Positions 20,641 through 23,853 are shown, counted from the first letter of the whole stretch. The stretch is 62,745 nucleotides of DNA, filler included, from Rhabdomonas costata (GCA_019059605.1; 42 parts of 42 records of this genome joined end to end with filler, not necessarily neighbours in it); one strand, 5' to 3'. Translations and numbers: made by a program. Notes: generated by a model not told the origin, from the letters alone.

Positions 20641-23227
20641 CTTTGAAGGTACATGTGTTCCGCAGGTTATGCATCAAAACACAACAACTCAGAAAAGCCA
20701 TGCCAATACTCCGTTCCCTTACTTGCTCAATAAAAAGCCAGTGATTACAACAGAGCACTTGAGATAACAAAGCATTCCGACGTGATCGTCAGAGTCATAA
20801 ATTCCACAAGAACACATATTCAAACAAACGGTCAAGGGAAGGGGGAGGCCAAAACAACANNNNNNNNNNNNNNNNNNNNNNNNNNNNNNNNNNNNNNNNN
20901 NNNTTAATTAATTAANNNNNNNNNNNNNNNNNNNNNNNNNNNNNNNNNNNNNNNNNNNNGGTTTTTGGGGAACGTAAGTCGTTACAGAGACTGGTTGAGT
21001 TCATTGTACAGAAGAACGAATAAGACGACGTGTTCACCTTCAAAGGGTACTCTGCCATGAATTTTGATTCGTGGACCCGACCAGGGCTTCTATACCAACA
21101 ACCGCACCCATAACCACATCTGAAGCATATGAAGCCTATTCATCAGAAAGTTGAACATTTTGCACTGGGGTTCTCCACTGGGAGCTCAAAATTCCAAGTT
21201 AATGATGCAATTTCTTCTCGATTCTCTGTGCTGGAACAGTTAACGACTGCCAGCGGAACACAGAGAACAGCTTTGTCAACTCCTCCGAAGGACGAGAACA
21301 CTTTCTGGTCCAGGGGCATTCAAGAAATACTAGTGACGTCGAGCTATCGTAGGGGGTCCCATGGTCCATTCCCACAGCTCTAAGTCAAGCACGGGGTTCC
21401 TCGAAACCATTGTTGCGAGAGCACCGAAGCAGGCTGGGTACTGCATCGGGACCTCATCTGGTATTTGGGTTGTGTGGGATTTCAGTCATGAAATTGAAAA
21501 GGCACCATGCCACGAGGCGACACCAAGTAAAGCGTTCATTACCGGAGAAACAGAGATGTCTCAAGGTCCCTGGGTCCGCTGGAGCCCGCATCGAATACAC
21601 ATCCAGAGAATCAATCATACAATGCACATGCATCATACCATCATCATTCATACACAGAACGCAGCCAATAGCAATACATACGTACACTAACCACTGTAAC
21701 CATAACCACTGTACCCATAACCACTGCCACGCAGCCAATGATATGTGCAGGACACCTTGTGTTACATGCATAGCTGGATAGCTGCGCGCTTTTTCAGCCT
21801 GCAAAAGTGAAGCTCCGCAAAAACAAAGTCAAAGAAGAAGACAAACCCAGGAAGGAGAAAGTTCGCGAAGTAAGCTGAAAACCCAGTGAAAATCCCACTG
21901 TCGCTGAGATGCAGCAGCAGCTTCGCACACAGCTCCTTGCCAAGAGCCTGAGCGATTGTAACGAACCATCAGACAAACAGAGAAAAACCAACCAACGACA
22001 CGAAAGGCGATCAGCCACAAGAAAATGTGCACAAACATTGCAATTGGAGAAATATAAGCGTGTCACATACACAACCACGGCAAGGTCAAGATGGGTGGGC
22101 GACAAAAAAGCCAACCGCCTTCGTTCCCAAACAAATGGCTGCTCGTACTCTCGTACCTCTCGCACACTGTCTCTAGCTGTCTGAATCTCTGGCTTTCTCT
22201 GCTTATTTCTGGCAGGATGTGTCCAACTCAAGGGGAGGAAGAAGGGCACCGGGGGGATCTTGATCTCCATCCCGGGCTCGAAGTCAGAGGTCAGGTCCGC
22301 GTAAATCTCTTTGGCCATCTCCACGTTGGCTTTCGGCCCCACGATGACACCACACCNNNNNNNNNNNNNNNNNNNNNNNNNNNNNNNNNNNNNNNNNNNN
22401 TTAATTAATTAANNNNNNNNNNNNNNNNNNNNNNNNNNNNNNNNNNNNNNNNNNNNGGGGTGTGGGGGGCGGCGACGAGGAGGCCGCGGACGAGGAATAA
22501 GTACTCTGCTTTGTCCCCGTTCTCCATTCACGGTGTCATTCTTTCTCTCACTCTTTCTTTCACTGTCGCTGCAAATGAGAGGAAGGAGGAGGGGTGAGAG
22601 AAAGATTTTGGGCTGGGTACTTTCCACTCTGCGGTGTTTTGCGCGCGGGTCGTAGCGCTTGGCTCTCTATCTGGACCGGGTTTTCCTCGACGTGTCTTCT
22701 GGCTCCATATCTCTTTCGGGGTTCATTTCCCGAAGGGTGGGCGGTGTTTTGGCAGCGATGGAAGAGGGTGTAAAGCCTGATGGTGGAGGGTCCCCTGTGA
22801 AACACCCGTGTGCAAGCACCGCTCTGCCCCGTGCTGGCACTGGCTCCGTTGCATTTGGCTTGAGCTGCTTTCAGCCGGGATGGAGGACGAGATGTGTGTA
22901 GGGGTCGGATCAGCGGGTAAGTCTTGAGCTTGGACCTCTGCTATGCCCGGGTTCGGGCTGAATTTTGGTTTGTCTAGTCTTGGGCTTAAGGGCACTTTAT
23001 CTGCCAAACATGTCTCGAGACATACCCCCCCCCATGTCGCTCCAGACGTCCCCTAGGTCTCGCACAGGTGGGATGCGCGAGTCACGTAGTGCCTGGATTC
23101 CCTAGTCATGAGGCTAATTATCTCTATGGAAAGCCATGCATTGTTGTATTGTTGTATCAGATTATTCCGGTGAGGATTCTTTGATGAACCCCTGCCAATC
23201 TTTTATCGGAGTCAAATGGGGACATGC

Positions 23228-23253
23228 GCCCAATTGCCGGGGGGCAATTGGGC
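23228..23253. promoter_or_regulatory. 11-bp perfect stem-loop upstream of thrS, function unknown
   Basis: GCCCAATTGCC-GGGG-GGCAATTGGGC, about 100 nt before the ATG. No U-tract follows. Confidence 0.35.
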
Positions 23254-23355
23254 TCCGGCATACACTTTTCGATCGATAGACATCGATAGACAGATAAGCT
23301 AGAAAAACCAACTTCGGTTACCCACCCGCAAAAACAGTAACGTTACCACAAAACG

Positions 23356-23853
23356 ATGATTACCGCCTTTTCGTCAGCCCACACCATGCAGCAGTTCGAA
23401 TTGGGCGACTCAGGATATGAGATATCAAAAAAAAATGGGAATCAAAAATGCCATCGCTGTGCTGCGTGACGGCACTTCAATGGATTTGCGAGACCCATTG
23501 GTGGTACCGGCGACAGTGAAAATACTAACGCAACAAGATCCGGAAGCGCTGGAGGTCTTACGACACGAGGTCGCACACCTACTTGCGGAGGCCCTGAAGG
23601 AGCTGTTCAAGGACGTCCAATTAGCTATAGGCCCTACCATAGAAGCCGGTTTTTATTACGATGTAGATCTAGGACGAAGCTTAAGCTCGGGAGATCTGCC
23701 ATCCATTGAGGATGAAATGCACCGGATCGCATCCGCAAACGAAGAAGTAACAAAACACTCAGTGTCTAAGCAGGAAGCCATGGCACTGTTCCGAAACGAG
23801 CCTTACAAGCTGGAAATCATCGAGAAAATTCCTGAAAACGATCCCACACCAAC
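23356..23853 (+). CDS. thrS: Bacterial-type threonyl-tRNA synthetase N-terminus (TGS and editing domain), truncated, with +1 shift in an A9 run
   Basis: ALEVLRHEVAHLLAEALKELF..VQLAIGPTIEAGFYYDVD...DLPSIEDEM..I...NEPYKLEII are ThrRS signatures. MITAFSS...FELGDSGYEISKK from ATG 23356 completes the TGS domain in another frame. No introns over about 500 nt. Confidence 0.92.

Follow-up and report, generated by a model that had tools for sequence, protein, structure and literature searches.

Does a bacterial-type gene at the end of a short contig in the genome assembly of the euglenid Rhabdomonas costata (GCA_019059605.1) belong to the nucleus of this protist, or was it brought there by amplification or contamination? 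The gene is thrS, coding for threonyl-tRNA synthetase (ThrRS), and it lies on the plus strand of a contig of 1397 bp (22457..23853). This contig forms part of what we call the window, that is, the whole stretch of 62,745 bases that was analysed, which is not a single locus but strings together 42 contigs, ordered by length and each measuring 1387-1398 bp. The contigs are separated by spacers made of N-runs flanking TTAATTAATTAA, and one such spacer stands on either side of the thrS-bearing contig. As detailed below, the contig carries a real 5′ fragment of a bacterial-type thrS of unusual divergence in an artefact-prone setting, and we tentatively favour the reading that this fragment belongs to a gene that is bacterial by descent and now resides in the nuclear genome of the euglenid.

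The identity of the fragment was confirmed: the contig ends in the 5′ part of a bacterial-type ThrRS gene, with about 162 native codons. An initial annotation of this DNA had counted about 165 ThrRS codons free of introns, in good agreement with our result, as no intron interrupts about 490 bp of thrS; the feature start that it proposed, 23040, precedes by 316 bp the ATG at 23356 with which the gene begins. The main frame (23429..23842, plus strand), which is read in phase with 23417, stays open as far as the contig reaches, with no stop in 137 codons, and it encodes the end of the TGS domain followed by the N-terminal ~100 residues of the N2 editing domain, the domain of ThrRS that hydrolyses Ser-tRNA(Thr). 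Positions 23441-23842 (134 codons) aligned with residues 35-167 of S. aureus ThrRS (1nyq) with an E-value of 2e-31, the alignment covering residues 10-142 of the open reading frame (ORF) in this phase. Matches to E. coli ThrRS were obtained with E-values of 1.9e-26 for the N-terminal fragment (1tje) and 1.4e-25 for the full-length enzyme (1qf6), residues 12-114 of the query corresponding without gaps to E. coli residues 35-137. The TIGR00418 (thrS) profile matched over its positions 1-94 of 565 (E 1.4e-20), with a score of 73.7 bits against a curated cut-off of 383.65 bits, a shortfall due to the truncation of the gene at the contig end: it runs off the contig at 23853, and the catalytic and anticodon-binding domains lie beyond. 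Our own profile, derived from 11 homologue N-termini, gave 169 bits (E 3.1e-53) over its positions 32-164, and homology to it ended at the D codon of IPEND.

Two histidine codons of the fragment, 23564-23566 and 23576-23578, form an HxxxH pair (RHEVAH) that aligned with His73 and His77 of E. coli ThrRS, which we take to be editing-site residues; the limit of the TGS domain presumably lies near 23533 (E. coli residue 62). The motif string RH..AH..AEA..ELF...Q..IGP.IE.GFYYD, noted earlier as bacterial in form, was found as described and reads LRHEVAHLLAEALKELFKDVQLAIGPTIEAGFYYD. The fragment keeps 25 of the 28 columns that are conserved at 85% or more across 90 bacterial sequences; within that set the sequences keep 22-28, with a median of 27. 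Judged from the deduced protein, the architecture of the fragment is bacterial, with TGS probably from residue 1 and then the N2 editing domain. A Pfam search with the 145-aa ThrRS ORF returned only three chance-level families (E 0.025-0.18), and TGS (PF02824) was unmatched at E ≤ 1, Pfam coverage between the TGS and tRNA_SAD domains being poor. The use of codons ending in A that had caught attention at the outset was also borne out, with CTA, TTA, ATA and GTA each occurring three times among the 137 codons (12/137).

The beginning of the gene is less regular. Codons 1-24 (MITAFSSAHTMQQFELGDSGYEIS; 23356..23427, plus strand), in the frame of ATG 23356, probably represent the start of the TGS domain. 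Whereas the C-terminal half of this domain aligns well, the first 24 residues do so only weakly, being colinear with positions 8-39 of our own profile at -3.0 bits. The usual LPDG-type motif is gone from them, as it is from one homologue, the Izemoplasmatales cluster P0001. Against a 33-column N-terminal profile the upstream peptide MITAFSSAHTMQQFELGDSGYEISKK scored 4.9 bits, a value matched by 9 of 2000 shuffles, and the other two frames were without signal (1065 and 781 of 2000 shuffles scored as well). ATG 23356 aligned to residue 1 of bacterial ThrRS. An in-frame TAA (23338-23340) is located five codons 5′ of it with no AG between them, which excludes a conventional upstream coding exon; a non-conventional euglenid intron upstream of the ATG is conceivable. 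The alignment of this ATG and the stop codon before it uphold the earlier view that the protein starts at the TGS domain and has no targeting peptide.

At the end of these 24 codons an A9 run (23427..23435, plus strand) advances the frame by one base, and homology resumes in the next frame, with no residues lost beyond a loop difference of 2-3 residues. The frameshift to which the initial annotation had alluded could in this way be located. It would most simply be a homopolymer length error of amplification or sequencing, a real and very recent inactivation being also conceivable.

We compared the fragment with several collections of sequences. A word-indexed search of 5.8 billion proteins with lengths of 255-2000 aa yielded 1812 candidates, of which 585 had E ≤ 0.001; the best 120 were 42-51% identical to the fragment. 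The named proteins among these 120 came from Psychromonas, Celerinatantimonas, Grimontia, Enterovibrio, Haemophilus and Bisgaardia, all of them Gammaproteobacteria, and the top cluster was from the Izemoplasmatales, the one informative name obtained for 8 clusters. An exhaustive phmmer search of 1.84 billion representatives yielded 6488 matches at E ≤ 0.001, none of which reached E ≤ 1e-30; the best full-span identity was about 50%, one 80-residue piece showed 54%, and a single Gaiellales fragment was the only named one of 10 clusters looked up. A common contaminant, of which the initial annotation had warned, is excluded by a best identity of ~50-51% in both protein searches. The nearest Protein Atlas clusters of the ThrRS piece were all bacterial ThrRS N-terminal (TGS) fragments. 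When prokaryote genomes were scanned one per species, the 80 best loci were 35-51% identical, in a sample that is biased as the scan begins from peptide patterns. An alphaproteobacterial origin, hinted at earlier, found no backing in these rankings, which are not a formal test: none of the 80 best prokaryote loci had an alphaproteobacterial title, and the named matches within the best 120 proteins were gammaproteobacterial or from Izemoplasmatales.

In a quick maximum-likelihood tree (91 rows, 136 columns), the rows of which were bacterial and without alphaproteobacterial, cyanobacterial or eukaryotic references, the fragment stood on a long end branch (0.98). It grouped with SAR86, an unclassified bin and seven gammaproteobacterial sequences (Shimodaira-Hasegawa-like approximate likelihood ratio test 91, unstarred), and fell in no well-supported clade. 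As a separate observation, one Paenibacillus genome carried two full-length thrS genes that both pass the TIGR00418 cut-off (768 and 753 bits). Paralogues of thrS do occur in bacteria, and they can mislead attempts to infer a donor.

The host DNA was characterised by a Pfam comparison of every stop-to-stop ORF with 60 aa or more in the 42 contigs, 545 in total (150 at E ≤ 1e-5, and 150 + 133 + 112 at E ≤ 1e-4). Matches were obtained in 6 of the 545 ORFs. On the plus strand these were an exon-sized piece of an amino-acid transporter (Aa_trans, 3769-4173; core third-codon-position GC content, GC3, of 0.91) and two ankyrin pieces on one contig (18221-18463 and 18622-19362). On the minus strand we found a Tf2-1-type integrase SH3 domain (32614-32808; E 1.1e-7), which is a Ty3/gypsy-type retrotransposon remnant in the host, and two consecutive exon pieces of EMP70/TM9SF (45952-46179 and 45172-45363). 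The EMP70 pieces are ~590 bp apart and their profile spans overlap (342-389 and 371-424), and this spacing indicates an intron; recognisable host exons (EMP70, Aa_trans, Ank) are only ~60 codons long. The second EMP70 piece was 98% identical to one EukProt protein, the nearest relatives of which were a paralogue with the same id prefix (85%), a protein labelled EG_transcript, which we take to be from Euglena gracilis (72%), and one of Eutreptiella gymnastica (63%), with Bodo saltans and plant EMP70 at ~46-49%. The EMP70 relatives, the exon layout and the integrase together identify the host as a euglenid with split genes and retrotransposons, an intron-rich eukaryote having been assumed at first, and euglenid genomes are described as intron-rich in PMC8219788. 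Other intronless bacterial-type genes were also sought, along a line that the initial annotation had opened, and none besides thrS was found among the 545 ORFs in the 42 contigs.

With regard to the rest of the window, contig GC ranged from 0.45 to 0.58 (n = 42), RNA scans of the whole window gave no Rfam family at gathering score and no tRNA, and one long host ORF had no usable match in the Protein Atlas. Two pairs of contigs have stretches in common that are probably dispersed host repeats. Contigs 1498-2895 and 47889-49285 have a 176-bp stretch of 76% identity in inverted orientation (2009-2174 versus 48843-49001), and contigs 53870-55266 and 55367-56762 have 51 bp of 88% identity (53965-54015 versus 55879-55929).

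The ends of the contigs carry traces of how the DNA was amplified. A G/T-only 5′ start of at least 6 bases was found in 34 of the 42 contigs and an A/C-only 3′ end of at least 6 bases in 37, these terminal runs being usually 10-14 bases long. They look like remnants of the K10NN tail of a primer for whole-genome amplification of the polymerase chain reaction (PCR) type; telomeres would show the opposite polarity. The K10NN primer is printed as TGTGTTGGGTGTGTTTGGKKKKKKKKKKNN in PMC10781638, and since the terminal runs fit such tails, contig ends are probably not native sequence. The sole near-complete copy of the constant part of the universal primer in the window is found at a contig end (59738-59755), with two mismatches of which one is a spacer N, and is an untrimmed adaptor. 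The thrS-bearing contig, probably one amplification product, begins with a 13-nt G/T-only run, GGGGTGTGGGGGG (22457..22469, plus strand), that looks like a remnant of the K10NN tail and may not be native. It ends with an 11-nt A/C-only run, CCCACACCAAC (23843..23853, plus strand), that is probably the complement of the primer tail, and the final residues PTP of the deduced protein are for that reason unreliable. An A/C-only run followed by a G/T-only run, as expected of amplicons joined head to tail, occurs three times in the whole window and not once in contig 22457-23853.

In addition, G/T-only or A/C-only runs of 10 bases or more are overrepresented inside the contigs of the window, with 236 observed versus 149 ± 12 in first-order Markov simulations, and long G or C homopolymers are among them. 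This excess could stem from a repeat that is naturally asymmetric between the strands, from a preference introduced by K-primed amplification or from an artefact.

Upstream of thrS the contig comprises two parts. The left block (22470..23056) has a GC content of 0.562, is poor in TpA (0.45 versus a window mean of 0.56), resembles other contigs in composition and contains no recognisable gene on either strand. The GC3 of its ORFs is 0.50-0.69, with no exon-like bias, and no ORF of at least 60 aa between 22457 and 23355 matched Pfam. The earlier description of this left half as host-like holds for its composition (GC 0.56, TpA 0.45), and composition was all that we found in its favour. The 299 bp that directly precede thrS (23057..23355, plus strand) are non-coding, with a GC content of 0.475. 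No sigma-70-like promoter site was found upstream of thrS, nor was any Shine-Dalgarno motif by direct reading of the sequence. A search for a T-box or other leader revealed neither: its 13 Rfam matches (E up to 10) were without exception below gathering score and belonged to other families. Thus, contig 22457-23853 displays neither gene-dense flanks nor bacterial expression signals, and in the assembly the gene is linked to 0.9 kb without a bacterial gene.

Several small elements were recognised in this upstream region. By direct reading, a 14-nt perfect palindrome, ATGTCTCGAGACAT (23010..23023), is followed by the C-run ACCCCCCCCCA (23024..23034). A perfect hairpin with arms of 11 bp, GCCCAATTGCC and GGCAATTGGGC, separated by GGGG (23228..23253, plus strand; 100% complementary), is located ~100 nt 5′ of the start codon with no T-tract right after it. 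The fold of 23215-23275 had a free energy of -24.5 kcal/mol (z -2.46; 3 of 200 shuffles were as stable). A repeat scan also revealed a tandem of two 10-bp copies, ATCGATAGAC (23272..23291, plus strand). None of the palindrome, the hairpin and the tandem matched a known RNA family. Farther to the left, a CT/GA-rich imperfect hairpin (22537-22608; 19-nt arms, 84% complementary) drew most of the 13 Rfam matches, microRNA-like and far below gathering score, which are probably due to chance in low-complexity sequence.

The best dinucleotide change point of the contig is at 22987 (log-likelihood ratio 26.0). Its internal shift ranks 8 of 42 contigs, 7 of the 41 others being stronger. A junction near the C-run had been proposed, and the change point does lie close by; the C-run itself found no backing as a mark of a chimera. 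As a primer-type junction, the run at 23024-23034 was rejected, being one of 236 such internal runs. The trinucleotide divergence of the thrS chunk ranked 74 of 126 chunks, and host-trained Markov scores of the contig were between the 7th and 63rd percentile, in tests of low power given only 57 kb of training sequence. No repeats are shared with the other 41 contigs (best E 0.23). Composition was accordingly discarded as a discriminator, as trinucleotide, Markov and change-point tests all leave the contig within the range of the others.

What, then, is the most plausible home of the gene? Bacteria of protist cultures are normally well sampled and usually near-identical to known ones, and the distance of the fragment from all sequences is therefore easier to reconcile with an under-sampled eukaryote than with a culture bacterium. 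In the reading that we tentatively prefer, a gene of bacterial ancestry would have been acquired by horizontal transfer, or would belong to the organelle-type ThrRS paralogues that have been described from euglenids, and would then have evolved for long in a poorly sampled euglenid lineage. Such long separate evolution would explain why no relative above ~50% identity was found. The 25 of 28 columns, both editing histidines and 137 open codons argue for purifying selection until very recently. A stretch of 0.9 kb without a gene would be unusual for a bacterial genome, and it too would be accounted for by long residence in an under-sampled eukaryote. The absence of bacterial expression signals, a composition that is not apart from that of other contigs and the absence of any primer-type junction within the contig also count in favour of a resident gene. 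In PMC8219788, a euglenid study, eukaryote-affiliated transcripts had a GC floor of 0.45, which the 0.485 of thrS exceeds, and 12% of the robustly placed proteins of a heterotrophic euglenid branched with prokaryotes. ThrRS was treated there like an aminoacyl-tRNA synthetase that is sister to the euglenophyte mitochondrial and plastid enzymes, with a duplication in the ancestor shared with euglenophytes. Given the duplication reported in PMC8219788, such a genome would be expected to contain further nuclear ThrRS genes in addition to the cytosolic one. Nuclear residence is favoured only tentatively, and the gene may function as an extra or organellar ThrRS.

A number of observations pull the other way. 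The linkage of thrS to its flank rests on one contig of an assembly amplified by PCR-type methods, and the GC of thrS (0.485) is close to that of the 0.475 block directly upstream, versus 0.562 farther left; taken together, this hairpin-bearing block and the gene resemble a bacterial gene, preceded by the intergenic region that belongs to it, joined to other DNA. Neither host-like codon usage nor introns were found in thrS: its GC3 is 0.51 versus 0.64-0.91 in the six Pfam-matched host stretches, and it runs for ~490 bp without an intron, versus EMP70 exons of ~60 codons that lie ~590 bp apart. The deduced protein lacks the N-terminal extension expected of eukaryotic ThrRS, which is awkward for an organellar enzyme, and a frame break is what would also be expected of an unexpressed insert. 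No EukProt protein, be it of the host, Euglena or Eutreptiella, was among the best 120 of the word-indexed search, in contrast with host EMP70, found in EukProt at 98%; this absence is weak evidence, as the search covered proteins of 255 aa or more, against a median transcript length of 430 bases in the euglenid study, and orthologues of ~45% identity could rank below the best 120. A published euglenid draft made in the same manner had residual bacterial DNA in one of two samples, according to PMC8219788. In short, bacterial layout and codons and the absence from the host-derived hits favour a bacterium, joined to host DNA in vivo or in vitro, and an intact yet half-identical gene with a gene-free flank favours the host.

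An amplification or assembly chimera, with the left ~0.55-0.6 kb from the euglenid and the right ~0.8 kb from an unsampled associated bacterium, appears unlikely. It would account for the fall in GC from 0.562 to 0.475-0.485 with a change point at 22987, and for a right block that is bacterial in layout, with ~300 bp of non-coding sequence bearing a hairpin and then an intronless ORF starting from TGS. It would also suit the GC3 unlike that of host exons, the primer-derived ends of the contigs and the bacterial DNA that PMC8219788 reports from such a euglenid sample. However, the supposed bacterium would have no relative above ~51% identity in 1.84 billion representatives, the shift is an ordinary one, surpassed in 7 of 41 other contigs, and the break shows neither a primer remnant nor an A/C-then-G/T junction, of which the window has three and this contig none. 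Besides, no second bacterial-type gene was found among the 545 ORFs. If instead the junction were real and the gene had been dead on arrival, as a recent and non-functional insertion of bacterial DNA into the euglenid nucleus, the frame break in the A9 run, the poorly conserved first 24 residues without the LPDG-type motif, the codon usage not shifted to that of the host, the preserved bacterial-looking upstream block and the absence of a host protein from the best 120 of the word-indexed search would all fall into place. But homopolymers such as this A9 run are notorious for length errors, so that the frameshift is weak evidence, and the Izemoplasmatales cluster P0001 likewise lacks the LPDG motif. 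With 25 of 28 columns kept and 137 codons open, any decay must be very recent, and the donor would again be an unsampled bacterium. We regard such an insertion as less probable still than a chimera.

Marginally below it we place the possibility that the whole contig is bacterial, coming from a contaminant, an epibiont or an endosymbiont of an unsampled lineage. A bacterial-type gene with no intron and no presequence, a GC3 unlike that of host exons, a weak affinity to Gammaproteobacteria in the tree and the dissimilarity of the contig to the other 41 (best E 0.23) would be in keeping with it; the ~0.9 kb upstream without a recognisable ORF or Pfam match on both strands, the lack of a Shine-Dalgarno motif, promoter match or leader, the absence of any relative above ~51% identity and a left block depleted in TpA like host contigs are not. 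Some giant viruses encode aminoacyl-tRNA synthetases, and a giant virus had been named among the possible sources. A search of 2.9 million viral contigs by single-protein patterns, able to detect close relatives only, gave 12 matches, and no relative is encoded by any of them. As the fragment had no blastn match to plasmids and its nearest Atlas clusters were bacterial ThrRS fragments, an origin from a giant virus or another mobile element is highly improbable. Cutting across these alternatives is the idea that thrS derives from a deep and still unsampled bacterial lineage, either fixed and working in the nucleus of a heterotrophic euglenid, as an extra ThrRS that is specific to the lineage and has no classical targeting peptide, or present in an unknown and highly divergent bacterial associate, which we consider possible yet doubtful. 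A small remainder of the probability is assigned to none of the readings.

Bacterial ThrS (TIGR00418; 1nyq, 1qf6, 1tje) has the same N-terminal order, register, editing histidines and IGPxIExGFYYD block as the fragment, which differs in being only ~45-51% identical, in the lost LPDG-type motif and in the A9 frame break; the catalytic core of ThrS is not on the contig, and thrS is known here from its N-terminal part. The mitoribosomal protein mL39, an N-terminal paralogue of ThrRS, shares the TGS and N2-like fold and was matched with E-values of 9e-5 to 6e-3. We rejected an mL39 identity: the fragment retains the editing histidines, and its match to true ThrRS is over 20 orders of magnitude better. 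Bacterial contaminants and chimeras that have been misread as horizontal transfer present a similar picture, with short PCR-amplified contigs, a protist in culture and a single unspliced gene beside non-coding DNA. Contaminants typically share at least 90% identity with bacteria already known, unlike the fragment, which is ~50% identical to all that are sampled. PMC8219788 cites a transcript from a contaminant with 95% identity to Magnetospirillum, and also a Tolumonas-like protein set. The organellar-type ThrRS paralogues of euglenids, as described in PMC8219788, belong to the same host lineage, and the fragment differs from them in having no presequence and a codon usage atypical of the host.

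As it stands, the thrS fragment is a single truncated gene on one amplified contig of 1.4 kb, and claims of horizontal transfer from such assemblies need read-level or PCR support. If the gene is bacterial, it would reveal an unsampled associate of the protist and, with it, a contig of a public assembly that is a chimera or a contaminant. Should the idea of an unsampled lineage be true, the fragment would offer the first glimpse of a ThrRS lineage without a relative above ~51% identity among ~15 billion predicted proteins. If, as we tentatively favour, the gene is nuclear, it would add one more case to the mosaic and transfer-rich gene content of euglenids, and it would bear on how mitochondrial ThrRS is supplied in a euglenid that has no plastid.

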